Of a stretch of DNA of 64,000 nucleotides, positions 1 to 42,600 are shown piece by piece. The notes below the pieces were generated by a model, which ran no database searches, had not been told where the DNA came from, and saw only the letters and a program-made list of their open reading frames with translations. The stretch's first letter is position 1, and the number at the start of each line of letters is the position of its first letter. This stretch comes from an uncultured Thermoplasmatales archaeon (GTDB lineage Archaea > Thermoplasmatota > E2 > DHVEG-1), in NCBI GenBank assembly GCA_964526175.1, contig CAZGIV010000001.1, positions 882-64,881 of the forward strand. Direction: 5' to 3'. Both the position numbers and the translations under genes were made by a program.

Positions 1-25
1 TCAACGGTTACCCATTGGTGTCGCG

Positions 26-532
26 TTGATTTCTGGTGCTTCTATCCAAATCCCAATTTTAGTTGAAATCAGAACCAGAGAGACCGATCATGGTGGGAAA
101 TCGGTCACCGTCTTCAAAGATATTGACCCATCCGAATATAAAGTGAAGATGCCAAAGATGCCTCCACCACCATCAAGACAGGAGGCAAAACCAGCGCAGA
201 AACCAGGAAATATCCAAAAGAATGTCACAGAGAAGGCAATAATGGTCAATCGGGTAGCAAAAAGACTTGGTTGGGTAAGTACTGATGATCCTGATGAGAC
301 CATAAAATTCCTTAGTGTAGAAGCAGAGGAAATGAAAGAGAATGTCTACAAGTATCTTGAGTCACTTGCACAACTCGGTGGTAACTTCTGTCATGAGGAA
401 AAACCAACCTGTCTGCAATGTCCAATGGCAAATGGCTGTCAATATCATATGTCTCATAATAAAAAGTCACGACATCAACTGCAGAAACAGGGGCTAGGGT
501 TATTTAAAAGAGATAAACAAAGGACCGTATGA
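26..532 (+). CDS. Probable 3' part of a longer gene: C-terminal endonuclease III/HhH-GPD-type [4Fe-4S] cluster loop (FCL) domain. The reading frame stays open back to position 2, so the true start is probably upstream of the window.
   Basis: C-terminal 85 aa match the EndoIII tail: VNRVAKRLGW...L...GNFC-HEEKPT-C-LQ-C-PMANG-C (C-x6-C-x2-C-x5-C). There are no stop codons between nt 2 and the TTG at 26. The preceding segment is Pro/Lys-rich and no HhH hairpin is seen. Confidence 0.35.
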   Translation: MISGASIQIPILVEIRTRETDHGGKSVTVFKDIDPSEYKVKMPKMPPPPSRQEAKPAQKPGNIQKNVTEKAIMVNRVAKRLGWVSTDDPDETIKFLSVEAEEMKENVYKYLESLAQLGGNFCHEEKPTCLQCPMANGCQYHMSHNKKSRHQLQKQGLGLFKRDKQRTV

Positions 533-1623
533 AAAAAAATACATGGTGGCTCTTCATCACCTGCATGCTTGTAGTAGTCGTTCTGTTATCTGGTTGTGAA
601 ATAATATATCCACCAGTCACCTACGAAGCTTCTCCAACTAGAATCAGCTATGATATTTCCTACGGATATCGAGTAAATAGTACTGGTAGGGGATTGTACG
701 AGATTACTTACTTTTGTGATACCCCTGAAGTTCTCATGGGATCTATTACGTATACGCTTCTCTATAATGATGAATACCAAACAAGAACCCTGTTGAATAA
801 TACCGTCATTCACTGGAACATTTCGAGTAAAGATGAAAAAACGTTTGAATTAGGAATAACGACACAGGTTGAAGCAGAAAGTTTTTTAGTCGCTGATCTG
901 AACGGAGAGGGTGCGTTAACAATTGGACAGATCAATGAGAGGTACCCTGAAATAATCAATCAATATACACGATTACAAGCCAATGAAACGATACGTTTTA
1001 TAGATCCCTACGATCCAGATATAACCACAATTGCTAATGAAGTTCTTTTAAACGCAAAGACGAACAATTCTTTTCTGTTAGCAAAATCATTGTTTTCCTG
1101 GCTGAAACAACATAATCAATACCAAACCCACCCTGATGAGAAAGTAGTACAATCAGCAGCGGTGACCTTAAGCAAAAAACAAGGGGATTGCGATGACCTC
1201 TCATTTCTTTACATTTCGCTTTGTAGAGCTCTTGGAATTCCTGCACGATTCATACAGGGATATCTATTAACAGAAAACATTGATGGATCTATCACTGCGG
1301 TTGCTCATGCATGGGTTGAGGTGTTTGTCGGTGGAACAGGCAGCCTTAACGGATGGATTCCTATAGAATGTGCTTGTTGTTCAAATTCTCTTAAGACCGA
1401 CGTCGATCAGAATTTTGGTCTTGAAAGTGCATTCCATCTGCGATTATTTACCGATGACGGGAGTAATGAATCGCTTGCATCCTCGCTTTCTGGAATCTCC
1501 TATATTTCATACTCACCTGATATAACCATTTCGCTTCAACCGTTTGTTGATATCCGTAACTATCAAGATCTTGAATCGAAAAAACTCGTCATTACAGAAA
1601 ATAACATACGGCATTACGAATAA
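529..1623 (+). CDS. Secreted or membrane-anchored transglutaminase-like cysteine protease fold protein
   Basis: N-terminal hydrophobic signal/TM (WWLFITCMLVVVVLLSGC). Transglutaminase-like core is present: QGDCDDLSFLYISLCRALGIPARF (catalytic Cys), then HAWVEVF (His) and a downstream Asp. Many N-x-S/T sequons. Confidence 0.6.
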   Translation: MKKNTWWLFITCMLVVVVLLSGCEIIYPPVTYEASPTRISYDISYGYRVNSTGRGLYEITYFCDTPEVLMGSITYTLLYNDEYQTRTLLNNTVIHWNISSKDEKTFELGITTQVEAESFLVADLNGEGALTIGQINERYPEIINQYTRLQANETIRFIDPYDPDITTIANEVLLNAKTNNSFLLAKSLFSWLKQHNQYQTHPDEKVVQSAAVTLSKKQGDCDDLSFLYISLCRALGIPARFIQGYLLTENIDGSITAVAHAWVEVFVGGTGSLNGWIPIECACCSNSLKTDVDQNFGLESAFHLRLFTDDGSNESLASSLSGISYISYSPDITISLQPFVDIRNYQDLESKKLVITENNIRHYE

Positions 1624-1667
1624 ATCTCAAAAACAAAAACATTATTTCTCAGTACGGGTTTCAGACA

Positions 1668-2327
1668 ATGCGTGGTTGTGATTTTTTGGTCGATGACGAA
1701 ACCGCAGAAGAATTTACCGTATACATGAAAAAATTCATGGATATGTACATTTTTCTTTCAAAAATCGTAAAAAATCATACAATAGCATCACACCCAATCA
1801 TTCTTGACCTTGGTTGCGGACCAGGATTACTTTCCATTGAAATACTAAAACAGATTACAGATGCTATAGTAATTGGTGTGGACCCACTGATAAAGATGTT
1901 ATCATTAGCAAGAGATAACAGAGATAGGTCTGGTGTTCAAATATTCGAACCCGTCCTTGGCCTCTCAGAAAAAATCCCTTTGAAAGATAGAAGTATCGAT
2001 ACAATTGTAAGTCGATTTAGTCTACCATACTGGAAACATCCAGAGGATAGTTTTTTGGAAATACACCGTGTGTTAAAACTAAATGGGAAAATCATAGTCG
2101 AAGCATTAAATCGGGATTTCCCGAAATGGAAACTCTTCTGTATTCGCATTGGTATGTTGCTCAATCGTGCGGGACGAGATGTTACCAAGTATCACGTTGA
2201 TGCCTATAAATCAGCACATACGCAGGAAGAAGTAGAGATGTTTCTTAAAAAATCAGGCTTTGTTATTGTTAATAAAGAAGGGAAGAAAAACGAATGGAAA
2301 TTTATCATGGTTGCCGAGAAAAAATAG
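1668..2327 (+). CDS. Class I SAM-dependent methyltransferase
   Basis: Motif I ILDLGCGPGLLS, post-I GVDP, motif II DTIVSRFSLPYW, motif III LKLNGKIIV. The real start may be the internal Met (MKKFMDMY). Confidence 0.6.
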   Translation: MRGCDFLVDDETAEEFTVYMKKFMDMYIFLSKIVKNHTIASHPIILDLGCGPGLLSIEILKQITDAIVIGVDPLIKMLSLARDNRDRSGVQIFEPVLGLSEKIPLKDRSIDTIVSRFSLPYWKHPEDSFLEIHRVLKLNGKIIVEALNRDFPKWKLFCIRIGMLLNRAGRDVTKYHVDAYKSAHTQEEVEMFLKKSGFVIVNKEGKKNEWKFIMVAEKK

Positions 2328-2376
2328 TCTTTTATTTATAATTATTACTATTATATATTATATTATTATATTTTAT

Positions 2377-2393
2377 ACAAAAGGTATAAATAG
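2377..2393 (+). promoter_or_regulatory. Archaeal BRE/TATA promoter element (aaaaGGTATAAATAG) about 30 nt upstream of the ATG at 2422
   Basis: Purine-rich BRE followed by the TATA box GTATAAAT at the expected distance from the start codon, in an AT-rich intergenic region. Confidence 0.45.
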
Positions 2394-2421
2394 TTTACAA
2401 ATGTAATATTTCAATAGATAT

Positions 2422-3735
2422 ATGAAAATCGATTCAAAAATAAAAATTCGCTCAAAGAAACTACTAGCAGTAAGTATAATTCTTATTTGTAGTTTACCTC
2501 TATCTTCTTTAGTAGGGACCAGTGTAAAAAGCCTTGAAAGTAATAAAAATAATGCACCTCTGAATATAGGAGAACAAGATCTTTATCTTCTCCGCGTCGA
2601 ACATTATTTATATGTCAATGCTTCAGATGATGTCGGGATTTTTCATATAAGATTTTCATTTCCACCAGATTATGCATATCAAGTTCCTTTGCTGTTAGAG
2701 CTCAACAATGATAGCACTCCGTTAGCAATAGTACATTATGATATCGAAAATGATACGTTACCACCAAATAAAATTATTAATTTTACTTTAAGCCCAATGA
2801 AAAAAGGCGACAGCGTTTTACTCCATTTCTCCTGTTGGGTTCTTTTGAAAAATCATGATTTCAGTGATCTCCCAGCCTATGTGAAAATCCCAAAAAAATA
2901 TCAATTACCAGAAGACACGAAACTATGGCTAGTCTCTACCAAAGAAGTTCAGCTCCATAGTCTCCTTATTCGAAATAAAGCACAACAATTACATGGATTG
3001 AGTGATAATCTTATTCGATATGCTGGTAGAATCGCACCTTTTATCAAAAACCATAGATATGTTTTCTTTGTCTTTGGACTACGAACCGGGTTGTTACTCT
3101 CTCAAGACGCACGAACAACGTTACTGATTAACGGAGAGAATGTTGGAAGATCCCACCTGGCATGTGCCTTTTTTAGAACATACCATATTCCAGCACGAGT
3201 TTTGCTTGTGAATAATGATCAAGGATTCTGGACACAAATGCATTACATGGTCGAATATTATTGTCCAGGATATGGATGGGTACTGCTGGAAACAACCAAA
3301 GGAATATCACCATACGCGACCTACCATCAGGTGATAAACAGAGTGTGTTACCCACAAGATGAGGAAGACACGAAAAATGACTATATTTTTCCGTTTATGA
3401 CTGGAGAAGAACGATGGTTATGGATAGATACTGAGTATGTTTTTCCCTATTATGTCGATTGTACTACTGGAAGCAAGAGTCAAATGTTCACTGAAATGCA
3501 CGTCTCCACAGATCAAATGATCGCAGATTATGCGTTTGTGTTGACTCAGATGGTGTTTCGTCAATATCAAGGATTTCTAGGGAGGAACTTTAGTAGTGAA
3601 AACCAAGAGCATTTCCAAAATGCCATTATGTATCAACAACAAGCGATCCTTACGTTAAAACAATCTCAGGACCTTGATGGCTACCTTACCTTTCTGAATA
3701 TGGCATACGATGAATATCAAGATATCCATAGGTAA
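2422..3735 (+). CDS. Secreted transglutaminase-like superfamily protein, paralog of the 529-1623 gene
   Basis: N-terminal signal peptide (LLAVSIILICSLPLSSLVG). Core GRSHLACAFFRTYHIPARVLLV...GWVLLE resembles the transglutaminase Cys/His core. A BRE/TATA promoter lies 30 nt upstream. Confidence 0.5.
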   Translation: MKIDSKIKIRSKKLLAVSIILICSLPLSSLVGTSVKSLESNKNNAPLNIGEQDLYLLRVEHYLYVNASDDVGIFHIRFSFPPDYAYQVPLLLELNNDSTPLAIVHYDIENDTLPPNKIINFTLSPMKKGDSVLLHFSCWVLLKNHDFSDLPAYVKIPKKYQLPEDTKLWLVSTKEVQLHSLLIRNKAQQLHGLSDNLIRYAGRIAPFIKNHRYVFFVFGLRTGLLLSQDARTTLLINGENVGRSHLACAFFRTYHIPARVLLVNNDQGFWTQMHYMVEYYCPGYGWVLLETTKGISPYATYHQVINRVCYPQDEEDTKNDYIFPFMTGEERWLWIDTEYVFPYYVDCTTGSKSQMFTEMHVSTDQMIADYAFVLTQMVFRQYQGFLGRNFSSENQEHFQNAIMYQQQAILTLKQSQDLDGYLTFLNMAYDEYQDIHR

Positions 3736-3913
3736 AAATTTTTTAATACTCGCCAATTAAAAACCCGAACGCATAATGTCTCTGTCGTTTCTCAGAAAAA
3801 CTAGGTTTTTTCGTTTGGCTATCTTTTACCTGTGTTTGTTTTTTGATATGCTTCTTTGCCATAGTGATTGTCTCCTATGATTTGTTGTTGTCAAGAGTAT
3901 ATATAAAGATACG

Positions 3914-4726
3914 GTGGGAGAATGTCAAAATGGAAAATACAATTCATCATTACATTTATTAGTCTCTGAAAGTATTGACATGCCCATGGTCGAAAATGAA
4001 CAGAAGCGAAAAAAAACACCACGACCGTTGCGGTCATATTTCTTCCCACTTATTTCTTCGATTATTTTTATCGTAGGACTCATTCCAGTAATGGTGGTGT
4101 TCTTTTTACTCCATCGTTTTTTCCATTATTTTGCGTTTAGTACATTTTGGCATTTTCTCCTACTGCCACTAATTGTTTATCTTGGAGCAATTCTTTTAAT
4201 CCTCTCTGAGCTCTATATCACCGGTGGTATCATACGGCTTTTCCAGATCACCTACCAACCAGGAACCCATGAGTATTCATTTAGAAATAAAAATACCAGC
4301 AAATGGACACTGATCTGTGTTCTATATACTCCCTTTAGAAAATTCCTTGAAATATTTCCTCTCGGCCGGATAAAACAATCTTATTTAAAACTTCTTGGTA
4401 TGAAAATCGGAAAAAACTCACTTGTTGGAGGCGTAATCAAAGACCCCTGTCTTACAGAATTTGGAAATAATGTTACCATGGGAGAATATGCAATCATCTA
4501 TGGTCATATTCACAACATGCAATTTGAGACTATTTTCATGGATAAAATACGGGTAGGTAACAATTGTGTGATCGGTGCCGGAGCCATCATTATGCCAGGA
4601 GCGATTCTTGAAGATGATGTCATTGTTGCAGCTGGTGCTGTAGTTACCAAAGGTCAATTACTAATAAAAGGTAAAACATATGGTGGAATACCCGCAAAGG
4701 AACTGACGAAAAAGGCCATGGAGTAA
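3914..4726 (+). CDS. Membrane-anchored hexapeptide-repeat (left-handed beta-helix) acyl/acetyltransferase
   Basis: N-terminal TM helices (FFPLISSIIFIVGLIPVMVVFFLL..., LLLPLIVYLGAILLILSELYI). C-terminal hexapeptide repeats: IGKNSLVGGVI...VGNNCVIGAGAIIMPGAILEDDVIVAAGAVV. The start is possibly at the internal MPMVENEQ. Confidence 0.55.
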   Translation: MGECQNGKYNSSLHLLVSESIDMPMVENEQKRKKTPRPLRSYFFPLISSIIFIVGLIPVMVVFFLLHRFFHYFAFSTFWHFLLLPLIVYLGAILLILSELYITGGIIRLFQITYQPGTHEYSFRNKNTSKWTLICVLYTPFRKFLEIFPLGRIKQSYLKLLGMKIGKNSLVGGVIKDPCLTEFGNNVTMGEYAIIYGHIHNMQFETIFMDKIRVGNNCVIGAGAIIMPGAILEDDVIVAAGAVVTKGQLLIKGKTYGGIPAKELTKKAME

Positions 4727-4777
4727 ATATTTAAATACATAACGTTTATATATTATTCTAATAAAAGGGGATATAAT

Positions 4778-5617
4778 ATGAAAAAAATAATAATACTTTC
4801 AATAGCGGCATTACTTTTTATTTCGCCGTTCGTAGCAGCTTCAACTATGACCACCCCACAGAAAACACAATCTCAAGGCCCAATAACAAGTGCAACAACA
4901 GACTTCACTCATACTGTTTTTATCGAAGAAGGAACGACGACCTGGTGCCCAAGCTGTCCAAATGCTGCAGAGGCGTTATATTCTTTATATAATTCCTCAG
5001 AATATCCCTTCTATTTTGTTGCGTTGGTATTGAATCAAAACCCGCTCGCACAAAATCGTTTTTGGGGACATTATCGAGGAACGGCGATTCCGACTATCTT
5101 TTTTGATGGTGGATTCAACCAAACAGTTGGCTCAGGAACAACTCCACAACAAACTGAGCAGATTTATCGTCCATTCATTGAAGGAGCTGGTGCAAGAGTA
5201 GCTCATCCCTTAGAACTGACCACGAATGTAACCGGTCATGGAGACGCAACGTTGGATATTACAGTAACAGTGAAAAACACTGGTTCCAAACCATATTTTG
5301 GATATGTCAGATCATACGTAACAGAGATAATCTCACGATGGACAAACTATCATGGAGACCCCTACCATTTCGGGTTCCTTGATTATGCGATAAAAAAAGT
5401 CGTGTTCCTTGCTCCACAAAAATCACGAACCTATACCATGACCTGGGATGGTGCAGCCCAACATGGAAATCTCACGTTCCTAGATATTACTGACAACAAC
5501 ATTATGGTGATAACAACCGTCGCTCACTGGCTACCTCATCTTGTCACTAAAGTCGAATACATTGGGACACATTTTGCGTTCTATATTGATCAAACCGCCG
5601 GAGCAACCGTAGAATAA
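4778..5617 (+). CDS. Secreted thioredoxin-fold protein with a WCPSCP redox motif
   Basis: Signal peptide (MKKIIILSIAALLFISPFVAAS), Thr-rich linker, thioredoxin-like CxxC (TWCPSCP). An SD-like aaaGGGGatataatATG precedes the start. Confidence 0.5.
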   Translation: MKKIIILSIAALLFISPFVAASTMTTPQKTQSQGPITSATTDFTHTVFIEEGTTTWCPSCPNAAEALYSLYNSSEYPFYFVALVLNQNPLAQNRFWGHYRGTAIPTIFFDGGFNQTVGSGTTPQQTEQIYRPFIEGAGARVAHPLELTTNVTGHGDATLDITVTVKNTGSKPYFGYVRSYVTEIISRWTNYHGDPYHFGFLDYAIKKVVFLAPQKSRTYTMTWDGAAQHGNLTFLDITDNNIMVITTVAHWLPHLVTKVEYIGTHFAFYIDQTAGATVE

Positions 5618-5736
5618 ACCAGGATGTTAACTGACGACTATAAGAATGCATTTTATCAATAGAAATAGCAGGGAATATATTTATAATCCATCTTTATTTT
5701 TGCCTATATACGAGTAGCTAGAATCCCGGTGAAATT

Positions 5737-6465
5737 ATGAGTATAGACCGATATAGAAGACAAACCCTAGTTGAGGAGTTAGGTCAGAAAGGTCAAGAAC
5801 TTCTAGCTAAAAAACATGCGATTGTCATTGGCGCTGGAGGACTAGGGAGCAACAGTGCAAATCTGCTTGTACGCATGGGCATCGGAAATATTGATATTAT
5901 TGATGACGACATCGTTGATATCACCAATCTTCATCGAACATCAGTGTTTTCAGAACATGATATTGGTAAGTCTAAAGCATTGATTGTTCAGGAGAAACTA
6001 CAACCAGTAAACACAATGGTACATGTGAAAGGAATTAACCAGAAAGTAACATCAGAAAACATTGATTCTCTCGTACGACACGCTGACGTGATAATTGATG
6101 GTACTGACAATATACCTCTTCGTTTACTTATCAACAAGGTATCAATACAATACAAAACACCATGGGTTTACGCAGGAGTGTATGGAACGGTTGGAATGGT
6201 GATGGGGATTCTTCCAAAAAAGACACCATGCTTCCAGTGCATCACCCAGGACACCCTGGATTTAAGTGCTCATGAGATACCGGTGCTTGGCAGTCTTCCA
6301 GCAACGATTGCAGCAATCCAAAGCAACGAGACAATAAAAGTACTTCTTGGGAGACAACCGTCTGGATTAATCATCTACGATGTATGGAATCAATGTTTTG
6401 ACACGCTGGATATTAAAAGAAACCCTAACTGTCCAATGTGTGGAAAAAAGAATAAAATGAATTAA
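5737..6465 (+). CDS. ThiF/MoeB/HesA-family E1-like adenylyltransferase with a C-terminal Zn ribbon
   Basis: VIGAGGLGSNSANLLVRMGIGNIDIIDDDIVDITNLHRT is the Rossmann/ATP motif of the ThiF/MoeB/E1 family. C-terminal CFQC...CPMC. The stop codon overlaps the start of the next gene (TAATG). Confidence 0.7.
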   Translation: MSIDRYRRQTLVEELGQKGQELLAKKHAIVIGAGGLGSNSANLLVRMGIGNIDIIDDDIVDITNLHRTSVFSEHDIGKSKALIVQEKLQPVNTMVHVKGINQKVTSENIDSLVRHADVIIDGTDNIPLRLLINKVSIQYKTPWVYAGVYGTVGMVMGILPKKTPCFQCITQDTLDLSAHEIPVLGSLPATIAAIQSNETIKVLLGRQPSGLIIYDVWNQCFDTLDIKRNPNCPMCGKKNKMN

Positions 6466-6731
6466 TGAAAAGAACGAATTCTATGAAAATAACCGTAAGA
6501 TTATTTGGACGATACAAAGACATCGCCGGTAAAGAAAAGATACACCTCGATATCACCGACGGTAACACCCTACGAGACGTTGTTGATGTTTTTGTGAGAC
6601 AATACCCGATGGTAGCAATAGATAAAAGTAGGATGATGATAACAAAAAACAAAATGTATGCTTCATTCGAAACCACTATTACTGAAGAAGACGAGATTAC
6701 TCTATCTCCGCCCGTGGTGTCTGGTGGATAA
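6465..6731 (+). CDS. ThiS/MoaD-like beta-grasp protein ending in Gly-Gly (small archaeal modifier protein or sulfur-carrier type)
   Basis: 88 aa, C-terminal ...PPVVSGG-stop. Translationally coupled to the upstream E1-like gene by a one-nucleotide TAATG overlap. Confidence 0.55.
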   Translation: MKRTNSMKITVRLFGRYKDIAGKEKIHLDITDGNTLRDVVDVFVRQYPMVAIDKSRMMITKNKMYASFETTITEEDEITLSPPVVSGG

Positions 6732-6736
6732 ACTTC

Positions 6737-7996
6737 ATGAAAAAGAATCAGTATTTAACAATGGGAATTTTCTTTTTTCTGCTTTTCCTCTTTACCACAT
6801 CGGTTGTGGCAGAAAATCAAGTGATAGTAGATTTTTATTATTCTGAGACCTGTGGTTCCTGTAAACCAGCGATTGCAATTATTAATAATATAACAGAGTA
6901 CTACGCGGAGAATTACATAGGAAAAGTAATCATCCAAAAAAAAGAGGTCAGCTCAAATGCAACCAACCGCAATGAAATGTATGCCAGAAAACTTAGCTTC
7001 CCCTCTGTGATAATCAACAACGAAACAAAAATCCCTAAAGCGAATATTACATACGAAAATATGGTAATCGTCATTGATGGATACATTACGGAGCTTGGTA
7101 TTGACCAACCATTTAATGAAATGATTCTGTATCTACCCATCATTGGAAGAGTCGATCTTTCCAGCCTCTCTTTACCAGTTCTAACGATTGTGCTTGGTGG
7201 ACTAGATAGCTTTAATCCTTGTTCCTTTTTTATCCTGATCTTTCTTCTGAACCTCTTATTATATCTGCGTTCAAAACGACGGATGTTACTGGTTGGCTGT
7301 ATTTTCATCTTCGTCTCAGGGTTTTTCTATTTCCTGTTTATGTTTGTCATGTTTAATATGCTGTTAATCACAGCTACGTATGTTAGTATAATTTCTTTTA
7401 TCGCAGGATTCATCGCACTTGCGATTGGTATTGTTAATATCAAAGACTTCTTTTTATTCAAAAAAGGACCTAGTTTGAGTATCCCTGAAGAAAAACGAGC
7501 GTTGACATTCAAGAGAATGCGAAACCTTGTGAAAGCACCGTCACTTTTCGCAATGCTTGGTGGAACGATCTTTCTTGCGGTTACCGTCAATTTCTATGAG
7601 CTGCTGTGTACCCTTGGCTTCCCTTTGATTTTTACCAGCAGATTAACTGAATTACAGCTTCCATTAGCTCAATACTATCTGTATATCTTTTTTTACAATG
7701 TGGTGTACGTAATTCCGCTTATCATCATTTTACTTATTTTCACATTCACGTTAGGGACCTTGAAGCTATCTGAATGGCAAGGCAAGAGACTGAAACTGCT
7801 CTCAGGGATAATGATCTTCTCGTTTGGATTATTTTTCATTATTGACTATCAGCTATTAGAAAATGTAACAACTCCAATCGCATTACTTGGACTAAGTATC
7901 CTCCTAACGATCGTGATTTCATATCTCTGGAAACGATATAAGAAAGAGTCAGAGGTACAACAATCAGAACAGCAATCCTCTAACGAAAACCCGTAA
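6737..7996 (+). CDS. Fusion of an N-terminal thioredoxin-like domain with a CcdA/DsbD-family transmembrane thiol-disulfide electron transporter
   Basis: Signal peptide followed by a CxxC (SETCGSCKPA). Polytopic membrane domain has two conserved TM cysteines in CcdA-like context (LGGLDSFNPCSF and ELLCTLGFPL). Confidence 0.55.
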   Translation: MKKNQYLTMGIFFFLLFLFTTSVVAENQVIVDFYYSETCGSCKPAIAIINNITEYYAENYIGKVIIQKKEVSSNATNRNEMYARKLSFPSVIINNETKIPKANITYENMVIVIDGYITELGIDQPFNEMILYLPIIGRVDLSSLSLPVLTIVLGGLDSFNPCSFFILIFLLNLLLYLRSKRRMLLVGCIFIFVSGFFYFLFMFVMFNMLLITATYVSIISFIAGFIALAIGIVNIKDFFLFKKGPSLSIPEEKRALTFKRMRNLVKAPSLFAMLGGTIFLAVTVNFYELLCTLGFPLIFTSRLTELQLPLAQYYLYIFFYNVVYVIPLIIILLIFTFTLGTLKLSEWQGKRLKLLSGIMIFSFGLFFIIDYQLLENVTTPIALLGLSILLTIVISYLWKRYKKESEVQQSEQQSSNENP

Positions 7997-8022
7997 TTTC
8001 TTCTCATCGTTAGTTACTCAAA

Positions 8023-8183: not shown

Positions 8184-8906
8184 CTAAAGGTCCCCAGGAA
8201 ATGCTCCAGTTAACAAAGCGTACTCCTCGAAGTCTTCTACCCAGTCAAACTCTTTGTCAACATCGCTTTCAGAAATTTTCTTGGCATGCTCAGTAAAATG
8301 TTTTTCTTGCTCTTCGATTAATTTTTCCAGAGGAGCAAACCGTTTTGCTTTCACGACAGGATAGAAAAGAACTGAATCGGCTCCTTCCAGACTGCGTATT
8401 TTCTCCCGAACGAATTTATTCACGGTTTCCGGAGAGTCAGCACCGACATTCATCACAAGGTCTTCATCCCCTAAAGAATAGGAGATATAGATGGGGAAAA
8501 GATTGAACGAATATTTGTAGTCAATTAAATAATTATAGATCGATTTGTAATTTCTAGGATGAGTGTAGATACGAATCACATATCGATGAATGGTTGCTGG
8601 TTTCTTCTTGGGTATTGGGAAAAAAACGGGTTTCATAAGCGAGACAGTACTTGTGTGGTGACACTCTGAACATTTTGAGAGATCCTCAACAAGGAAATGC
8701 GCGATGTCATCTGGATCTTTGACTTCGAAAACAACAGCGACGCTCATCATTCCTTCTGCTTGCGTTGCATACAACGGTGTAATATATTTTGTTGTTTCTT
8801 CTTTCATGATATTGTTTTCTACATAGTTCCATATTTTGCTGAGATCGCTTCTTGGGGATAACCTTACAATTATCATCATAGAATATTCCTCCAAATATAA
8901 CCACAA
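8184..8906 (-). CDS. Stand-alone protein with two tandem Lrp/AsnC-type RAM (ligand-binding) domains, no HTH, and an acidic C-terminus
   Basis: Two segments each fit the RAM consensus, but only weakly: VIRIYTHPRN...LFPIYISYSLGDEDLVMNVGADSPETVNKFVREKIRSLEGADSVLFYPVV, and the earlier ...MSVAVVFEVKDPDDIAHFLVEDLSK.... No DNA-binding helix-turn-helix is seen. Confidence 0.3.
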   Translation of the reverse strand: MWLYLEEYSMMIIVRLSPRSDLSKIWNYVENNIMKEETTKYITPLYATQAEGMMSVAVVFEVKDPDDIAHFLVEDLSKCSECHHTSTVSLMKPVFFPIPKKKPATIHRYVIRIYTHPRNYKSIYNYLIDYKYSFNLFPIYISYSLGDEDLVMNVGADSPETVNKFVREKIRSLEGADSVLFYPVVKAKRFAPLEKLIEEQEKHFTEHAKKISESDVDKEFDWVEDFEEYALLTGAFPGDL

Positions 8907-26205: not shown

Positions 26206-26744
26206 AGAAAGAAATCCGAATCTGTGGTTTTGGTGGTCAGGGTGTTATTTTAGCTGGTTTTATCATTGGAAAAGCAGCAACGGTATTCATGGATTATAAT
26301 GCAGTACAAAGTCAATCCTATGGCCCAGAGGCCCGGGGAGGCGCGGCTCGCTCTGAAGTGATCATTTCTGATGAAAAAATCGGTTACCCACGTCCAATAA
26401 GCGTTGATGTGTTCGTCGCCATGTCCCAGGAGTCATTTGATGCATATCGCAATGATATCCGGGATGATACTCGTATCGTGATTGATCCTGAGCTAGTGAC
26501 GAAACATAATATTGGCCGACCCGTCTACAAAGTACATGCACAGCAAATCGCTGAGAAACTCGGTAACAAAATTGTGACCAATATCGTGATGGTCGGAGCA
26601 GCAACAAGCATCATTGATTTATTGGAGCCTGAAGCAGTGAAAAAGGCTGTCATCGACAGTGTCCCAAGTAGGTTTAAAGAAATGAATGTCATGGCATTTG
26701 AAAAGGGATTAGAGGCAGGGAACAATGCCCTCAAAGAAAAATAA
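26202..26744 (+). CDS. korC: 2-oxoacid:ferredoxin oxidoreductase gamma subunit
   Basis: ICGFGGQGVILAGFIIG is the gamma-subunit signature. Overlaps korB by 4 nt. Confidence 0.7.
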   Translation: MKKEIRICGFGGQGVILAGFIIGKAATVFMDYNAVQSQSYGPEARGGAARSEVIISDEKIGYPRPISVDVFVAMSQESFDAYRNDIRDDTRIVIDPELVTKHNIGRPVYKVHAQQIAEKLGNKIVTNIVMVGAATSIIDLLEPEAVKKAVIDSVPSRFKEMNVMAFEKGLEAGNNALKEK

Positions 26745-29700
26745 TCAAAAAATGGATCATGATTTAGGGATACCCCTTTGCGATGATTATTTCTTCGATG
26801 AACCAGAAGCAATCGAACAAGAAGAAAAAATGCCTGAGCCAGCCAGTACTATCCAAAAAATCTCAGAGGTTGTAACACGGAAGAAAAAACGGATTATCTA
26901 CGGGGATGTACTCATTGTTGGAGCGGGAATCTCAGGAATGCAATCCGCTCTGGATATCGCAGACAAAGGATACAAAGTCGTTATCATTGATAAAACATCT
27001 ACGATCGGCGGGGCGATGGTAAAACTTGATAAAACATTTCCCACGAATGACTGCTCGATTTGTACCGCTGCCCCAAAAATGGTTGAGCTCGCTCGTCATC
27101 CAAATATTGAACTTATTACCTATGCTGAGATGAATAAACTTGTTGGTAAAAAAGGTGACTTTACCGCACAGATCTGGAAAAAAAGTAAATATGTTGACCC
27201 GGATAAGTGCACGGGATGCGGTGATTGCGCCGAAGTCTGTCCCGTTGAAATCATAAGTCCGTTTGATGAAAAAATATCGACACGAAAAGCTGTCTACATT
27301 GAATTTCCACAAGCAGTTCCAATCGTGTATACGGTCGATATCGAAAAGTGCGTTGGTTGTGGTTCTTGCGACAGGGTCTGCGAACCAGCAGCGATTAGTT
27401 TTTTAGAAAAATCAGAAGAAATTGAAGTTCATGCAGGAAGCATTATCATCGCGACCGGTTTTGAGGTCTTTGAACCAACAGAAATTCGAAAAGAATACGG
27501 ATACGGGAAATACGAAAACGTCCTCACCGCAATGCAAATCGAACGACTGCTTTCTTCGTTTGGACCAACCAGTGGTAAGGTCCTACGTCCCTCAGATTAT
27601 AAAAAACCAAAAAAAATCGGATGGATTCAATGTGTCGGCTCACGAAGCGAACAACAAGGGTACCCATATTGTTCACGTGTGTGCTGCATGTACGCAACCA
27701 AGGAAGCATCCATTGTCAAAGAATCAAATCCAGAGATAAACATCACTATTTATTATATGGATATCCGTGCCTATGGAAAGGATTTTCAACAATACTATGA
27801 TCATGCGAAAAAACTTGGAGTCAAATATGTTCGTGGACGACCATCCTCAGTATATGAGAATAAGAATAAGAGTCTGATAGTACGGTATAAGGATACCCTC
27901 ACAGGAAAAATCAAAGAGGATACGGTTGATCTGTTAGTCTTATCAACATCCATTATTCCTGCGAAAGGAAATAAGAAACTTGCAGAAATCATTGGCTTAG
28001 AAGTCGATGAAAATGGTTTTTTCAAACAGGAGTCTCTCCTTGAGAACCCAGTAGAATCCTCTAAAGAAGGCGTGTATCTGGCAGGATGTATCCAAGGACC
28101 AAAAGATATCCCGGATAGTGTTTCCATGGCCAGTGGGGCTGCTGCAAAAGCGGTTGCTCCGATTAAAGATCGACAACGACATATCGGCAAGGAATTTCCT
28201 CCTGAAAAAGACATTTCCAAAGAAGAGCCACGCATTGGTGTATTTGTGTGTCATTGTGGGAAAAACATTGCTGGGTATCTCGATGTTGAGAAAGTCACTG
28301 AGGAAGTAAAAAAACTTCCGAATGTTACTCATGCTGAACATGTCATGTTTGCCTGTTCACAGGATAGCGGTAAAAAAATCAAAGCTCTCATCAAAGAAAA
28401 AAACCTGAATCGTATTATTGTTGCAGCGTGCTCACCCCGGACCCATGGAGGGTTATTCCAAGATACCTTACTTGAAGCAGGGTTGAATAAATATTTGTTT
28501 GAAATGGCGAACATTCGAAATCAATGCTCATGGGTTCATTCGGATGATTGGGAGAAAGCAACCATAAAAGCTATTGATTTAGTAAAAGCATCTGTCGCAA
28601 AAGTATCTCTTCTTGAACCTCTCAGTGAGGAAGAGTTTTCCATTCTTCCAAGTGTGCTTGTCATCGGCGGGGGAATTTCAGGGATGAAAGCAGCACTGGC
28701 ACTTGCTGAGATGAATGTGAAATCCTATCTTATTGAACGAGAAAAAGAACTCGGTGGCCGCCTCAAACAACTCAATACGATGTTTCCTACAGATAAAAAA
28801 GCCCAGGACATCATCGATCCGTTAATTAAAAAAGTCACGACGAATAAATTGATAACGGTAATGACGGGTGCCGAGCTTGTTAGCATTGAAGGATTTATCG
28901 GGAATTATAAAGGGACAATTAAACAGAAAGGAAAAAAGAAACAGCTTGGCATTGGAACAATTATTGTCGCAACCGGTTTTCGAGAAATTGATCTTAAAGG
29001 AGAATATCAACATAAAATAAATGAAAATATTTTATCTCAGACAGAGCTTGAGGAAAAAATTAAAAAAGGGACATTGAAAAAACCCAAAAATGTCGTCATC
29101 ATCAATTGCGCAGGAGCAATGGATGAACAACGACCGTATTGTTGCCGTATTGGGTGTGGAGTTGCGATTAAAAACGCAAAAGTAATTAGTGAAAAGTACC
29201 CCGGCTCAAAAATCTATCTCTTATATCGTGACATGAGGGTGTTTGGGAAAGAGGAAGAAGAATATTATTCGAACGTTATTAAAAATCATCATGTGACGGT
29301 TATTCGCTATCCCGGTGAGAAAAAACCAGAGGTTATTCTTGATAAAAAAGATCCGAAAAAGGGTCCGATGAAGATTAAAGTCTATGATGATATCCTTGAA
29401 GAGGAGCTGACGCTTCCTGCAGATCTCGTTGTTCTTACCGTGAACACTGAAGGTGAGGTGCTGACAGAGTCGCTGAAGAACATGCTGAAGATACCAGCTG
29501 ATTCCGCAGGATTCTTTTTAGAGGCCCATGCAAAAATCCGTCCGTTGGATTTCGCAACCGATGGGATTTACCTTTGCGGAGCGGCCCATTACCCGAAGAA
29601 TCTCGTTGATTCTATTGCTCAAGCAGAAGGTGCTGCATCCCGTGCAGCAATCCCGATTATGCAGGAGAAAATGAAAGGAGAAGGCCAAGTTGCAGAAGTC

Positions 29701-29940
29701 AATGAAGAGTTGTGTAGTGGCTGTAAGACCTGTGAACAACTGTGTGCCTATTCTGCCATTGAGATAAAACCACGGCAGAATGACCCTGAACATTTTGTTG
29801 CTACGGTAAATAAAGCACTTTGTAAGGGATGCGGCTCATGCGCAGGAGCGTGCCCGTCCGGTGCGATCGAACAGAAAGGGTTCCGGAGTAAACAAATCCA
29901 AGTCATGCTTGAAGCACTCCTTGGGGCAGGTAAAAAATGA
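26725..29940 (+). CDS. hdrA: Tandem double-HdrA fusion: an N-terminal HdrA-like FAD/ferredoxin module lacking the CHCG N-domain, joined to a complete canonical HdrA. The start may be the Met at 26752, just after the korC stop.
   Basis: First FAD fold VLIVGAGISGMQSALDIADKGY with inserted ferredoxins CTGCGDCAEVCP and CVGCGSCDRVCEP plus YCSRVCCMYA. Then the canonical HdrA N-domain RIGVFVCHCGKNI...ACSPRTH...ANIRNQCSWVH. Second FAD fold VLVIGGGISGMKAALALAEMN. C-terminal CSGCKTCEQLC...CKGCGSCAGACPSGAI. Confidence 0.7.
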   Translation: MPSKKNNQKMDHDLGIPLCDDYFFDEPEAIEQEEKMPEPASTIQKISEVVTRKKKRIIYGDVLIVGAGISGMQSALDIADKGYKVVIIDKTSTIGGAMVKLDKTFPTNDCSICTAAPKMVELARHPNIELITYAEMNKLVGKKGDFTAQIWKKSKYVDPDKCTGCGDCAEVCPVEIISPFDEKISTRKAVYIEFPQAVPIVYTVDIEKCVGCGSCDRVCEPAAISFLEKSEEIEVHAGSIIIATGFEVFEPTEIRKEYGYGKYENVLTAMQIERLLSSFGPTSGKVLRPSDYKKPKKIGWIQCVGSRSEQQGYPYCSRVCCMYATKEASIVKESNPEINITIYYMDIRAYGKDFQQYYDHAKKLGVKYVRGRPSSVYENKNKSLIVRYKDTLTGKIKEDTVDLLVLSTSIIPAKGNKKLAEIIGLEVDENGFFKQESLLENPVESSKEGVYLAGCIQGPKDIPDSVSMASGAAAKAVAPIKDRQRHIGKEFPPEKDISKEEPRIGVFVCHCGKNIAGYLDVEKVTEEVKKLPNVTHAEHVMFACSQDSGKKIKALIKEKNLNRIIVAACSPRTHGGLFQDTLLEAGLNKYLFEMANIRNQCSWVHSDDWEKATIKAIDLVKASVAKVSLLEPLSEEEFSILPSVLVIGGGISGMKAALALAEMNVKSYLIEREKELGGRLKQLNTMFPTDKKAQDIIDPLIKKVTTNKLITVMTGAELVSIEGFIGNYKGTIKQKGKKKQLGIGTIIVATGFREIDLKGEYQHKINENILSQTELEEKIKKGTLKKPKNVVIINCAGAMDEQRPYCCRIGCGVAIKNAKVISEKYPGSKIYLLYRDMRVFGKEEEEYYSNVIKNHHVTVIRYPGEKKPEVILDKKDPKKGPMKIKVYDDILEEELTLPADLVVLTVNTEGEVLTESLKNMLKIPADSAGFFLEAHAKIRPLDFATDGIYLCGAAHYPKNLVDSIAQAEGAASRAAIPIMQEKMKGEGQVAEVNEELCSGCKTCEQLCAYSAIEIKPRQNDPEHFVATVNKALCKGCGSCAGACPSGAIEQKGFRSKQIQVMLEALLGAGKK

Positions 29941-38787: not shown

Positions 38788-39665
38788 GATATGCACTATT
38801 CCTTGGATGTACAATCCCGGTTCGAGGGCAGAACTATGAACTGTCAGCACGTGAGGTTGCAAAAAAACTTGACATTGATTTTCTTGATGTCCCAGAATTC
38901 TCCTGCTGCGGGTTTCCCGTAAAATCATCCAATTATGAGGCGTCATTATTAATTGCAGCACGGAATTTAGCGATCGCTGCTGAAAAAAAAGAAAAAATCT
39001 GTACGTTATGTAACGCATGCACCTCGGTTCTGACTGAGGCGAATAAGGAATTGACAAAAAATAAAGAACTCAGAGAAAAAATCAACAAGGAACTTGCAAC
39101 AGTTGATAAAGAATTCAAACCAGGAGTCGAAATTAAACATTTCTCACGGATTCTTTATGAGGACATCGGCATGGATGCCATTCGAGAAAAAATTAAAACA
39201 GATCTGAGCAAACTCAGTATGTCGATTCATTACGGGTGCCATTACCTCAGACCCTCAGAATTATATGATTGTTTCGATGATGCAGAAAACCCATCGACGG
39301 TCGAAAACCTTGTGGCAGTGACGGGAGCCGCAGTCGTTGATTATAAAAACAAGTTAGATTGTTGTGGAGGAGCGATTCTTGGTGTAGAAGAAGACATCGC
39401 GTTGTCCATGGCGAAACAGAAACTCGATCATATCACCGCAAACAAGGTTGATGCATTAGTCACCATTTGTCCGTTTTGTTCAATTATGTATGAGGATAAC
39501 CAGAAGAAAATTGAAACAAAATTCAATGTGAATTATAACCTGCCGGTGTTGTATTATCCACAGGTACTTGGTCTTGCGTTAGGAGTTGATCCAAAACAAC
39601 TCGGGTTCCGACTCAATAAAGTTCGACCAACAGCAATTCTTGAAAAACTCGGGGTGACCCTGTAA
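38784..39665 (+). CDS. hdrB: Heterodisulfide reductase subunit B-like
   Basis: ALFLGCTIPVRGQNYE...SCCGFP...CCGGAILG is the CCG signature. Overlaps hdrC by 4 nt. Confidence 0.7.
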   Translation: MRYALFLGCTIPVRGQNYELSAREVAKKLDIDFLDVPEFSCCGFPVKSSNYEASLLIAARNLAIAAEKKEKICTLCNACTSVLTEANKELTKNKELREKINKELATVDKEFKPGVEIKHFSRILYEDIGMDAIREKIKTDLSKLSMSIHYGCHYLRPSELYDCFDDAENPSTVENLVAVTGAAVVDYKNKLDCCGGAILGVEEDIALSMAKQKLDHITANKVDALVTICPFCSIMYEDNQKKIETKFNVNYNLPVLYYPQVLGLALGVDPKQLGFRLNKVRPTAILEKLGVTL

Positions 39666-42600
39666 TGAAAAACTCTTCGAAATCTGGTAAAATAGGCTCA
39701 GTTCTCGTAGTTGGCGGCGGTATTGGAGGCATGCAAGCTGCCCTTGATCTCGCTGACTCCGGGTTTAAAACCTATCTGTTAGAGGAAAAACCAGCGATTG
39801 GTGGAGTCATGGCCCAACTCGATAAAACATTTCCAACCAATGATTGTTCTATGTGCATTCTTTCCCCGAAACTCGTAGATGTGGGCCGACACCCAAATAT
39901 CGATTTAATTACATATGCTGATTTGCAAGAAATCACAGGGAACAGCGGGAATTTTCAAGTGAAAATTCGTAAGAAAGCAAGTTATGTAGACTCTGAGAAA
40001 TGCACAGGGTGCGGTGAATGTGCAGAAGTCTGCCCGGTAGTTCTTGAGTCTGAGTTTGATGAAGGCTTATCCGATCGTCATGCAATCTATAAAATGTATC
40101 CTCAAGCTATTCCTAATGTCTTTACTATTGATAAAATCGGGATCCCGCCGTGCATGAATGCATGTCCGGCGAATGTGAATGTTCAGGGATACGTTGCATT
40201 GATTCGGGAGGGAAAATTCCAGGAAGCCGCGGATCTTATCCGTGAACGTAATCCATTCCCGGGAGTCTGCGGAAGGATTTGTACCCACGTCTGCGAGGAG
40301 AACTGTAATCGGAAGGAAATTGATGAAGCAGTCGCTGTTCGAGCCTTGAAACGATTTGCTGTTGATTATGAACGGCTCCATGGCCGTAAAGAGACAAAGA
40401 AAAAGAAAAAACAGGTTGAATTACGTGGACAAAACCGTAAAATAGCAGTAATCGGCTCTGGTCCTGCTGGGTTAACGGTTGCATATGATCTTGCGAGAAT
40501 GGGGTATCACCCAACTGTTTTTGAGGCACTCTCACAAGCAGGGGGAATGCTTCGGGTTGGTGTTCCGAATTATCGTTTACCACCAGAAGTCCTTGATTAT
40601 GATATTAAAATAATTCAGGAGGAAGGAGTAGAAATTCGAACGAATACTCCGATAGGTCCTGATCTGACGTTAAATGATTTACATAATGCAGGATATGAAG
40701 CTGTTTTTATTGCGATTGGGACGCATAAAAGCAAGAAACTCGGGATCGATGGTGAAGAATTAGATGGTGTTGTGCACGCAGCAGGATTCTTGCATGATCT
40801 GGGAAGTGGAAAAAAGGTTGATTACGAGGGAAAAATTGTTGCGGTTATCGGCGGAGGAAATGTTGCGATTGATTCGGTCCGAACCGCACTCCGACTGGGA
40901 GCAAAAACAGCATTTGTTATTTATCGTCGTTCTCGTACTGAAATTCCTGCGAATAAAGAGGAATTAGAAGAATGCGAGCGTGAAGGTATTTCGTTCTATT
41001 ATCTAGCTGCACCAACAAAAATCCTGGGTAAAAAAGGGAAGGTAACTGGGTTAGAATGTGTCCGAATGAAACTTGGTGAGCCTGATGATACTGGTCGGAG
41101 ACAAGCCATACCAATAGAAGGCTCAACGTTTACTCTTGATGCTGATGTGGTGATCTCAGCAATTGGCCAAGCACCGCTCTTATCCCCGCTTGCGGAAGCG
41201 GAAGTTGAGTTAGGGTTAAACAAAGAAGGTATCGTTTCTGTTCCTATTCAGAACCTTGAATTAGAAGGCGTCTATGGTTTCACCGCTTTTCTACGTGCCC
41301 TTAGCATGGGTCAGAAAATCGAAATTGGGAAAAAAGTTATTGTTGTCGGAGGGGGAAACGTTGCAATTGATGTTGCTCGGTCAGCACGACGTATCGGAGC
41401 AAAGGAAATCCACCTCATGTGCGTTGAATCCCATGAGGAGATGCCTGCATTTGATTATGAAATTGAAGAAGCAGAACAAGAAGGAATCATTATTCATACG
41501 AGACGGATGCCAAAACGAATCATCGGAGTCGGTGGTCGTGCAATTGGCGTCGAAACCCTCCAGTGTACGTCTGTGTTTGATGAAAAAGGGCGGTTTAACC
41601 CTCAGATCCGACCAAATACTGAATCAGTTATTGAAGCAGATACCATCATCGTTGCTATCGGTCAGGAAGTTGACTATACACTTCTAAAAGCAGCAGATGG
41701 TGTCCTGGTCACAAAACGTGGGTTACTCCAAGTCGATAATTTAACGTATCAAACGAATATCCCCTGGATTTTTGCTGCTGGTGATGCAGTGGTTGGACCA
41801 GGGCTTGTCATTGAAGCAATCGCGCAGGGCCATGAGGCAGCAATCTCCATTGATCGACATCTCAATGGGGAAGAACTATATGAGGGAAGACCCGGAAAAG
41901 AACATATTGTAGCCCCGAAACCTGATAAAAAATTTGAAAAAAAACCTCGGGTGACAATCCCTAAACTTGATGTTGAGAAACGTGTCGAATCTTTTGAAGA
42001 AGTAGAACTTCCGTTAACAGAGGAACAGGCTCGTCTAGAAGCTCAACGGTGTTTAAGTTGTAATTTCTGCTCAATTTGTAAACAATGTGTTGAAGCATGT
42101 GAAGCAGACGCAATCGATCATGATATGAGTGAAAAAATCATTGAACTGAATGTTGGATCAGTGATTTTTGCACCAGGATATGAATTATTTGATGCAACAT
42201 TGAAAAGCGAATATGGGTATGGACGATATAGAAACGTGCTCACATCACTTGAGTTTGAACGAATCCTGTCTGCATCAGGACCATACGCTGGCCATGTGGT
42301 CCGACCGTCTGACCAGAAAGAACCACGAAAAATAGCGTGGATACAATGCGTTGGATCACGTGATAACGCTTGTGGGAAAAATTATTGTTCATCGGTCTGT
42401 TGTACATACGCGATTAAAGAAGCAGTCATAGCAAAAGAACACGCACCCAACATTCAACCAACCATTTTTTATATGGATATGCGCACCTACGGGAAAGGCT
42501 TTGAATCATACTATAATCGCGCGGAAAAAGAATACGGTGTCAGATTTGTCCGATGTCGTATCTCCTCAGTCGAAGAGGATAAAAAAACCAAGAATCTCTC

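Follow-up and report, generated by a model that had tools for sequence, protein, structure and literature searches.

Transmembrane thiol-disulfide relays of the DsbD type, among them DsbD, CcdA, ScsB and DipZ, have one cysteine in each half of the membrane domain. In DsbD, ScsB and DipZ a CxxC domain of the thioredoxin (Trx) fold is fused on the outer side of the membrane, and proteins of the CcmG/ResA/TlpA type are secreted Trx-fold clients. Archaeal extracytoplasmic thiol-redox systems have barely been studied. Here we describe a gene block at positions 529-7996 of a 64,000 nt stretch of DNA (the window; GenBank assembly GCA_964526175.1, contig CAZGIV010000001.1, positions 882 to 64,881, forward strand) from an uncultured Thermoplasmatales archaeon. 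The host is a sediment member of the Thermoplasmatota of the Marine Benthic Group D (MBG-D) type, with named homologues in Thermoplasmatales archaeon SM1-50 and Thermoplasmata archaeon M9B2D. The block encodes a protein, TrxTM, that resembles the relays above in having an outer-side, fused Trx-fold CxxC domain and one cysteine per membrane half, these cysteines aligning with those of DsbD_TM; as in DsbD-type systems, a separate secreted Trx-fold protein, sTrx, is encoded close by.

We tentatively read the block as a lineage-specific syntenic set of about three separable units in one MBG-D-like clade, not a single system, with a DsbD-type relay as its third unit; we put the chance of this reading a little short of even. 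Open reading frame (ORF) calling on positions 1-8000 gave nine co-directional ORFs on the + strand. Eight of them, at 529-7996, are the block under study, in agreement with the eight co-directional genes of an initial annotation made from the sequence alone. The block genes, followed by the two genes that flank them, are:

529-1623, +: TG1, a 364-aa predicted lipobox lipoprotein with a transglutaminase-like core (Pfam Transglut_core, 6.6e-20)
1668-2327, +: MT, a class I S-adenosylmethionine (SAM)-dependent methyltransferase, Methyltransf_11/UbiE-like (Pfam)
2422-3735, +: TG2, a 437-aa signal-anchored paralogue of TG1 (Pfam Transglut_core, 1.3e-6; hhalign)
3980-4726, +: HEX, a 248-aa left-handed beta-helix (LbH; hexapeptide) protein with two transmembrane (TM) segments (Pfam Hexapep, 6e-10)
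4778-5617, +: sTrx, a 279-aa Trx-fold protein with a putative signal peptide (Pfam Redoxin, 22.3 bits, below the 26.6 cut-off)
5737-6465, +: E1, a 242-aa ThiF/MoeB-type adenylyltransferase (Pfam ThiF, 1.4e-63)
6483-6731, +: Ubl, an 82-aa beta-grasp sulfur carrier of the MoaD/ThiS family (Pfam ThiS, 1.5e-8)
6737-7996, +: TrxTM, 419 aa, in which an outward Trx domain (weak Pfam Trx/Redoxin matches) precedes a polytopic membrane domain; apparently a distant member of the DsbD/CcdA superfamily
26-532, +: C-terminus of a HerA-like (DUF87) ATPase, outside the block; its stop shares 4 nt with the TG1 start
8184-8906, -: a 240-aa protein containing a ligand-binding (RAM) domain of the AsnC/Lrp type (Pfam AsnC_trans_reg, 1.3e-5)

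HEX probably starts at the ATG at 3980, which gives 248 aa and matches the orthologues, rather than at the GTG at 3914, and Ubl probably starts at the ATG at 6483. A Kyte-Doolittle scan found a hydrophobic N-terminus in TG1, TG2, sTrx and TrxTM and two TM segments in HEX, and detected no hydrophobic or TM segment in MT, E1 or Ubl. Together with the profile matches, these results bear out four assignments of the initial annotation: a membrane hexapeptide protein, a SAM-dependent methyltransferase, a secreted Trx-fold protein with a WCPSCP motif, and an E1/ThiS-like pair that is cytoplasmic, with neither TM segment nor export signal.

A candidate thiol-disulfide relay and the adjoining sulfur-carrier genes

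TrxTM has a predicted signal peptide, a C39-G-S-C42 motif with cis-Pro89, and about six or seven TM helices; its membrane domain contains Cys162, within DSFNPC, and Cys291, within YELLC. Both membrane cysteines are invariant in alignments of 45 and of 75 sequences. Across the 75 family members, which extend down to 36% identity, the CxxC and the cis-Pro are kept in 73 and both membrane cysteines in all 75; the C162 motif belonged to the pattern by which the family was retrieved, and CxxC, cis-Pro and C291 are independent positions. Structure comparison assigns the N-terminal domain to the Trx fold, and it has both the CxxC and the cis-Pro expected of that fold. The distribution of positive charges around the Kyte-Doolittle segments, read from the sequence, follows a positive-inside pattern that fits an outward Trx domain. 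A search of the PDB with the TrxTM profile matched the Trx domain only, and no solved CcdA. The relation to DsbD comes from a profile alignment: hhalign aligned TrxTM with a Pfam-verified DsbD_TM protein (L089:3869-5293; loci are referred to by L numbers) over 338 columns (E 3.6e-5, probability 71%), placing C162 on the A-P-C cysteine and C291 on the I-P-C cysteine of that protein. Because the membrane cysteines align in this way, we regard TrxTM as a probable distant member of the DsbD superfamily with an outward Trx domain, lying outside the CcdA family by available models. The initial annotation had called it a Trx-CcdA fusion; the outward Trx domain and the alignable cysteines agree with that description, and the family name does not.

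The TrxTM family is large, with at least 1418 members at 90% clustering. Many of its distant members (L105-L169) carry a CPHC motif of the DsbA type, and the clade of the window has CGSC or CGEC; the family may include members running in the oxidising direction. If our assignment is right, this is a widespread family related to DsbD/CcdA that is still without annotation and escapes the current Pfam models, with four cysteines conserved to 36% identity; giving it a name would help to annotate the genomes of many sediment archaea.

The second Trx-fold protein, sTrx, has the motif W-C57-P-S-C60-P and a cis-Pro105, with C57, C60 and P105 invariant across orthologues, ahead of a C-terminal domain, about 150 aa long, that is uncharacterised. 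Only 208 homologues were found, all of Thermoplasmatota type, which makes sTrx a small, clade-restricted family. The gene appears split or frameshifted in two species and is inverted, at 46% identity, in one (L015/L152, about 14.5 kb; L087, about 13.3 kb; L011:7528-8367).

We propose that TrxTM and sTrx would most likely form a DsbD/CcdA-type transmembrane thiol-disulfide relay. A cytoplasmic dithiol donor would reduce the membrane pair Cys162/Cys291, this pair would reduce Cys39/Cys42 of the fused outward Trx domain, and the Trx domain would in turn reduce Cys57/Cys60 of sTrx, from which reducing equivalents would pass to envelope proteins. The observations behind this scheme are the conserved cysteines, the Trx fold, and the alignment of the membrane cysteines with those of DsbD_TM; from these we infer the direction of electron flow, the partnership with sTrx and the relay substrates.

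E1 and Ubl look like an ordinary MoeB/MoaD-type pair of adenylyltransferase and sulfur carrier. E1 scores 214.7 bits against Pfam ThiF and has a GAGGLG loop, CFQC...CPMC zinc motifs and no rhodanese domain; its best PDB matches are Escherichia coli ThiF (8.6e-36) and MoeB (8.7e-30). It falls below all NCBIfam equivalog cut-offs, scoring 165 bits against the 450 set for UbaA. Ubl scores 35.5 bits against Pfam ThiS (cut-off 22.5), is just under the cut-off of the archaeal MoaD model TIGR01687 moaD_arch (45.1 vs 49.5), and reaches 37 of the 60 bits set for SAMP1 in NCBIfam; neither Ubl nor E1 comes up to the SAMP/UbaA equivalog level. Its C-terminal PPV(V/I)SGG is invariant in 33 orthologues, it contains no cysteine, and its best PDB match is MoaD of Pyrococcus furiosus (1vjk). 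None of these scores singles out ThiF, MoeB or UbaA as the assignment of E1.

The transglutaminase-like proteins, MT and HEX

TG1 matches Pfam Transglut_core (PF01841) with 71.8 bits, above the cut-off of 23, and has an N-terminal lipobox, L20-S21-G22-C23, in which, among 48 sequences, G22 and C23 never vary and S21 is kept in at least 90%. The archaeal lipobox, as one source states the motif, is [L/V/I][A/S/T/V/I][G/A/S]C after a hydrophobic signal sequence (PMC12462473). Given the invariance of the lipobox, TG1 is a predicted lipoprotein rather than a freely secreted protein. C23, C221, H260 and E280 are all invariant in alignments of 17 and of 48 sequences; C221 lies in GDCDDL, H260 in AHAW, and Glu280 in GWIPxE, at a position where the family usually has Asp. 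The same alignments show several further conserved cysteines on the outer face. Homologues number 583, with 55-90% identity among the top 120. An AlphaFold2 (AF2) model of good quality (pLDDT 88.1, pTM 0.84) shows an N-terminal beta-sandwich and a transglutaminase-like core, and Foldseek ranked 3isr first among its fold matches (E 1e-13), followed by the periplasmic domain of TgpA (about 1e-6) and then by animal transglutaminases; 3isr is also the best PDB match by sequence (1.3e-8).

TG1 thus resembles 3isr, a putative cysteine protease of Cytophaga hutchinsonii, and TgpA (6g49) in combining a beta-sandwich with a Transglut_core domain and in having the nucleophile Cys and the His in place. 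It differs from them in its third triad residue, an invariant Glu, and in being anchored by an archaeal lipobox, and what 3isr and TgpA do is poorly defined in its own right. We suggest that TG1 is most likely a thiol hydrolase or transamidase acting on extracytoplasmic peptides. The analogy to pseudomurein endoisopeptidases drawn in the initial annotation turned out to be weak: TG1 shares the transglutaminase-like catalytic fold with PeiW and PeiP, and the matches are distant ones, PeiP and PeiW ranking 26 and 48 by Foldseek (E 5e-4 and 3e-3). The PDB sequence search gave no Pei match, Pfam found no pseudomurein-binding repeats in TG1, and there was no S-layer or pseudomurein gene among ten large annotated ORFs in the rest of the window. 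Pseudomurein is not known outside Methanobacteriales and Methanopyrus, and the host here belongs to the Thermoplasmatota. Our literature search found nothing that joins Thermoprofundales/MBG-D with transglutaminase.

TG1 is found throughout a cosmopolitan clade of benthic archaea known for protein degradation and is highly conserved there; as a predicted surface protein it is a reasonable biochemical target. Further TG1-like genes occur in the clade. L051 and L064, from metagenome-assembled genomes that also yielded L046 and L057, have an extra TG1-like paralogue away from the HerA-like gene, and CP070724 has a gene for a 353-aa Transglut_core protein (L088:5339-6400, - strand) about 1.6 kb upstream of sTrx-E1-Ubl-TrxTM and on the opposite strand to these genes.

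TG2 scores 29.0 bits against Transglut_core (cut-off 23), the match covering profile positions 51-107, which are the His/acid half only. With family profiles, hhalign aligned residues 81-283 of TG1 with residues 106-293 of TG2 (E 3e-5, probability 73.5%), and on this alignment TG2 is a true paralogue of TG1. The G-D-C221 of TG1 pairs with G238-E-N240 of TG2, leaving Asn at the position of the nucleophile. Orthologues of TG2 (for example L021:11878-13209 and L053:14626-15912) are dimorphic: 18 of the 27 have Asn (GENVGR), and nine have Cys (GDCPGR). His274 is invariant in all 27, and the position of Glu290 varies between Glu, Asp and Gln. TG2 also has a C-terminal helical domain, and a search of the PDB with its profile gave no usable match. 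The Asn form is itself well conserved, suggesting a retained, non-thiol function rather than decay. TG2 of the window is probably not a thiol enzyme; it probably serves as a binding or scaffold protein or is a non-thiol derivative. Of the two paralogous, secreted Cys-His-Asp proteins that the initial annotation described, the paralogy and the hydrophobic N-termini have held up; the acid is Glu, TG1 is predicted to be lipobox-anchored rather than free, and the catalytic Cys, whose absence on alignment had been named as grounds for refutation, is present in TG1 and missing from TG2.

MT is below every NCBIfam equivalog cut-off and is cytoplasmic by the TM scan. It lies 3' of TG1 in 28 loci, at times without the rest of the block (L037). 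HEX is probably an acyltransferase associated with the membrane: two TM helices at its N-terminus precede an LbH domain that is predicted to face the cytoplasm. Over its full length it aligns with TIGR02353, the model of the terminal domain of Pls/PosA-type non-ribosomal peptide synthetases (NRPSs), with an E-value of 1.9e-13 and a score of 49.7 bits that fails the cut-off of 423.1. The resemblance to this C-terminal membrane/LbH repeat spans the TM helices; unlike Pls/PosA-type NRPSs, HEX is a single stand-alone unit with no adenylation or carrier domains. Over the LbH part it resembles the sugar and lipid O-acetyltransferases Maa, WcaF and YvoF, and its PDB matches are LbH proteins only. The top PDB matches are like carbonic anhydrases, and we set aside a reading of HEX as a gamma-carbonic anhydrase since, by eye, the His ligand motif is absent. 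A role in the envelope or in lipid metabolism is plausible for HEX because of its membrane anchor and its likeness to both the Pls/PosA terminal unit and the LbH O-acetyltransferases.

Gene neighbourhoods and the weighing of explanations

With the TG1 profile, a search of a single genome from each species found 80 loci, every one from Thermoplasmatota, which were annotated by tblastn and hidden Markov models; a scan of metagenomes centred on TrxTM gave 80 further loci. A gene for a Dph5-like TP_methylase and the HerA-like gene lie upstream of TG1 in 73 of the 80 TG1 loci, and of the seven exceptions five lack sequence on that side and the other two are second copies; the three genes are syntenic in essentially all of the roughly 75 related species. 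The same backbone extends into the ribosomal protein genes S19e/L39e/L31e and eIF6. The start at 529 given in the initial annotation is therefore not a boundary: the stop of the HerA-like gene overlaps TG1 by 4 nt, and the backbone continues upstream.

Presence or absence downstream was judged on the 38 loci with at least 8 kb 3' of TG1, and thus refers to adjacency within 8-10 kb. In 22 of these, none of the seven downstream families is found near TG1. The block is present in the same order, with single-gene losses, in 13 (and in about 10 metagenome loci), and the losses are of TG2 in L026 and L087, sTrx in L053 and L056, and TrxTM in L023. Two further loci have sTrx-E1-Ubl-TrxTM only, 5-9 kb off and without MT, TG2 or HEX (L024 and L071/L088), and one has MT alone. 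sTrx is the least stable member of the block. Conservation of the neighbourhood, which the initial annotation had proposed as a check, is seen for gene order in a third of the loci, and in most of the others the block does not adjoin TG1, with subsets of its genes occurring separately. Every locus with the block has a HerA-like protein at least 83% identical to that of the window, which corresponds to one clade. Inside this clade the identity of some members has fallen to 37-50% with the order still kept, and sTrx still adjoins E1-Ubl-TrxTM at 34% identity (L024, L031 and L071).

The tightest link in the block is that between Ubl and TrxTM. A MoaD-like ORF ending in GG lies directly upstream of TrxTM in all 16 of the close orthologues (identity of about 53% or more) whose upstream sequence is available, and in none of 41 distant relatives, which also have no ThiF, sTrx, transglutaminase-like or HEX neighbour. 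The gap is 5 nt in the window and 5-6 nt in most of the 16 loci, reaching 86 nt in L104. At L089:9747-11254 the Ubl-TrxTM pair, with a TrxTM 58% identical to that of the window, occurs without E1 and is flanked by genes for an ArsR-type helix-turn-helix (HTH) protein, ArsD, ArsP, a P-type ATPase, two DsbD_TM proteins, and rhodanese-PKD and NosD beta-helix surface proteins. Far from being merely flanked by the other genes, as the initial annotation had put it, the cytoplasmic pair includes the gene most closely attached to TrxTM. We regard this coupling as a clade-specific and mildly unusual feature. One might imagine that E1 and Ubl are functionally coupled to TrxTM, with a thiocarboxylate feeding sulfur or reducing power into the transmembrane cysteine relay for secreted Trx-fold proteins; we consider this highly improbable, and if true, a sulfur carrier would be driving an envelope thiol system, for which no counterpart has been described.

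By inspection of the sequence, HEX is preceded by a TATA-like box, with T-runs 3' of TG2; a second TATA-like box 5' of E1 separates sTrx from E1, and an oligo-T tract lies 3' of TrxTM. This suggests at least three transcripts, with putative boundaries before HEX and before E1. In our preferred reading, the first unit would be TG1, a core-genome surface lipoprotein with an apparently intact Cys221-His260-Glu280 triad, 3' of the housekeeping Dph5-like and HerA-like genes. The second would comprise MT as a cytoplasmic methyltransferase, TG2 as a non-thiol derivative, and HEX as a membrane-anchored LbH protein. The third would be the relay of TrxTM and sTrx, to which E1 and Ubl would be transcriptionally tied in this clade.

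The initial annotation had instead proposed one envelope system, in which the relay keeps two secreted transglutaminase-like enzymes reduced for cross-linking or remodelling of the envelope. The genes all run in one direction, and 13 species loci and about 10 metagenome loci share their order even though some of the proteins are just 40-50% identical; TG1 has an apparently intact thiol triad and other conserved outer-face cysteines, and the nine Cys-bearing TG2 orthologues are all at TrxTM loci wherever the contig reaches that far. Nonetheless, the link between transglutaminase-like proteins and relay is unsupported, because TG2 lacks the Cys in most genomes that have the relay (most of the 18 loci with Asn have the full relay), TG1 is universal in the clade and has the relay adjacent in only about one third of species, and the TrxTM family shows no affinity for transglutaminase-like genes, its distant members never adjoining one. 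The relay also occurs without TG2 in L024, L026, L087 and L088, T-runs and TATA-like boxes part TG2 from HEX and sTrx from E1, and the fold of TG1 is nearer to bacterial proteins without a known function than to the Pei isopeptidases. For TG1 such a link may yet hold, as these counts refer to the flanks of TG1 and not to whole genomes. A single envelope system is quite unlikely, and what survives of the proposal is its extracytoplasmic thiol-redox pair, which the conserved cysteines and the order kept at 40-50% identity make plausible without the transglutaminase link. Barely credible is the idea that E1 and Ubl form a SAMP-like conjugation system with the transglutaminase-fold proteins as its proteases or ligases. 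Ubl does end in GG, E1 is of the ThiF/UbaA type, and papain-like deconjugating enzymes have a fold akin to that of transglutaminases, but the lipobox of TG1 and the signal anchor of TG2 place these proteins outside the cytoplasm, whereas E1 and Ubl have no export signal. We rejected this idea on topology and on the scores, which are far under the UbaA and SAMP1 cut-offs; in addition, the block contains no JAMM or E2 gene, and PADLOC shows no signature of a Ubl system past the generic E1 domain.

Several observations weigh against a DsbD-type relay. Neither DsbD nor CcdA models of Pfam (PF02683/PF13386) match the TrxTM membrane domain at E<=10 in any of 13 orthologues, the hhalign probability is only 71% with a template that is a single sequence, and the AF2 model of the membrane domain is weak (pLDDT about 60-80, pTM 0.49), with no CcdA-like structure found for it. 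The dipeptides of CGSC in TrxTM and CPSC in sTrx leave the redox direction unfixed, as do the distant CPHC members, and sTrx is absent from L053, L056 and L104, which keep TrxTM, weakening any obligate pairing. Finally, the order is kept within one clade only, such that shared ancestry could explain much of it. This last point leads to an explanation by historical synteny alone, in which an accessory segment was inserted beside the housekeeping backbone in the ancestor of the clade and has yet to be reshuffled, and its genes have no common pathway. The invariant neighbours of TG1 are unrelated housekeeping genes (Dph5-like, HerA-like, S19e/L39e/L31e and eIF6), the block is limited to loci with a closely similar HerA-like protein, its genes drop out independently, and its families differ in breadth, with 208 homologues of sTrx, 583 of TG1 and 1418 of TrxTM. 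Since plainly non-related housekeeping genes are equally syntenic, conservation of neighbours in this lineage is no sign of a common function, and we caution against reading it as one. Synteny alone does not readily account for a Ubl-TrxTM pair that survives a move to the L089 context with gaps of mostly 5-6 nt, or for an sTrx that stays beside E1-Ubl-TrxTM even at 34% identity, and two outward Trx-fold CxxC proteins are unlikely to adjoin by chance; we place it on the unlikely side. We consider it improbable that TrxTM and sTrx act as an oxidative or isomerase pathway for secreted proteins, or that TrxTM is a LysE/DsbD-superfamily carrier of thiophilic metals or metalloids, employing its outer CxxC and its membrane Cys pair much as MerP/MerT do. 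The DsbA-type CPHC of many distant members would suit such roles, as would the ArsR, ArsD, ArsP, P-type ATPase and DsbD_TM genes around the pair in L089, an ArsC/low-molecular-weight-phosphatase-like gene 3' of TrxTM in three distant loci, and the faint matches of TrxTM relatives to SfLAP (PF11139), not to DsbD; the LysE clan holds several metal transporters. Yet both membrane cysteines of TrxTM align with the redox-active cysteines of DsbD_TM, its Trx domain keeps the cis-Pro typical of oxidoreductases, and no quinone-linked, DsbB/VKOR-like partner was seen. Moreover, when the neighbours of about 60 distant TrxTM relatives were clustered they proved heterogeneous, with no dominant metal theme, the most frequent being a small winged-HTH regulator (six loci) and a YyaL-like protein (five loci).

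The HerA-like ATPase upstream is 628 aa at full length, as read from identical metagenome contigs (L001:3457-5343), and matches HerA of PADLOC at 1e-48. Over about 73 species it is 63-98% identical, and its position is always between the Dph5-like methylase and TG1. Its C-terminal extension has an iron-sulfur (FeS) loop of the Nth/MutY type, C-x6-C-x2-C-x5-C (NFCHEEKPTCLQCPMANGC; NCBIfam mutY, 5e-7). PADLOC returned nothing beyond HerA and E1 domains of a generic kind and a single methyltransferase match, and since there was no defence-system signature we dropped a defence or conflict reading of the block. On the other side, the RAM-domain protein at 8184-8906, in which no HTH was detected, recurs tail-to-tail with TrxTM in L006, L015 and L024 (70-82% identical) and also in L088. 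The window contains no tRNA and no Rfam element. Its remainder is given over to central anaerobic metabolism, with LarA, acyl-CoA dehydrogenase, fumarase, succinyl-CoA ligase and giant FeS-flavoprotein fusions. Three of these fusions (26725-29940, 39665-44632 and 47938-52473; 1071, 1655 and 1511 aa) have several Pyr_redox_2/FAD, 4Fe-4S ferredoxin and DPD-type FeS domains, and look like soluble oxidoreductases of the electron-bifurcating type.

Comparison with described systems

E1 and Ubl are like MoeB-MoaD and ThiF-ThiS in the ThiF fold and zinc CxxC pairs of E1, in the PPVVSGG end of Ubl, and in having adjacent or overlapping genes. They are unlike these pairs in that both proteins miss every equivalog cut-off, no MoaE, ThiG or JAMM gene is nearby, and the pair is uniquely tied to a membrane Trx protein in this clade. 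TrxTM, for its part, departs from DsbD in several respects: its Trx domain is N-terminal, directly before the first TM helix; its second cysteine motif is Y-E-L-L-C and not P-C; it has about seven predicted TM helices; its gene is coupled to a MoaD-like gene; and it comes from an anaerobic archaeon, with no genes for cytochrome c maturation seen near it. All of the domains encoded in the block come from known superfamilies, and nothing in it contradicts current knowledge; as a whole, the block corresponds to no described system.

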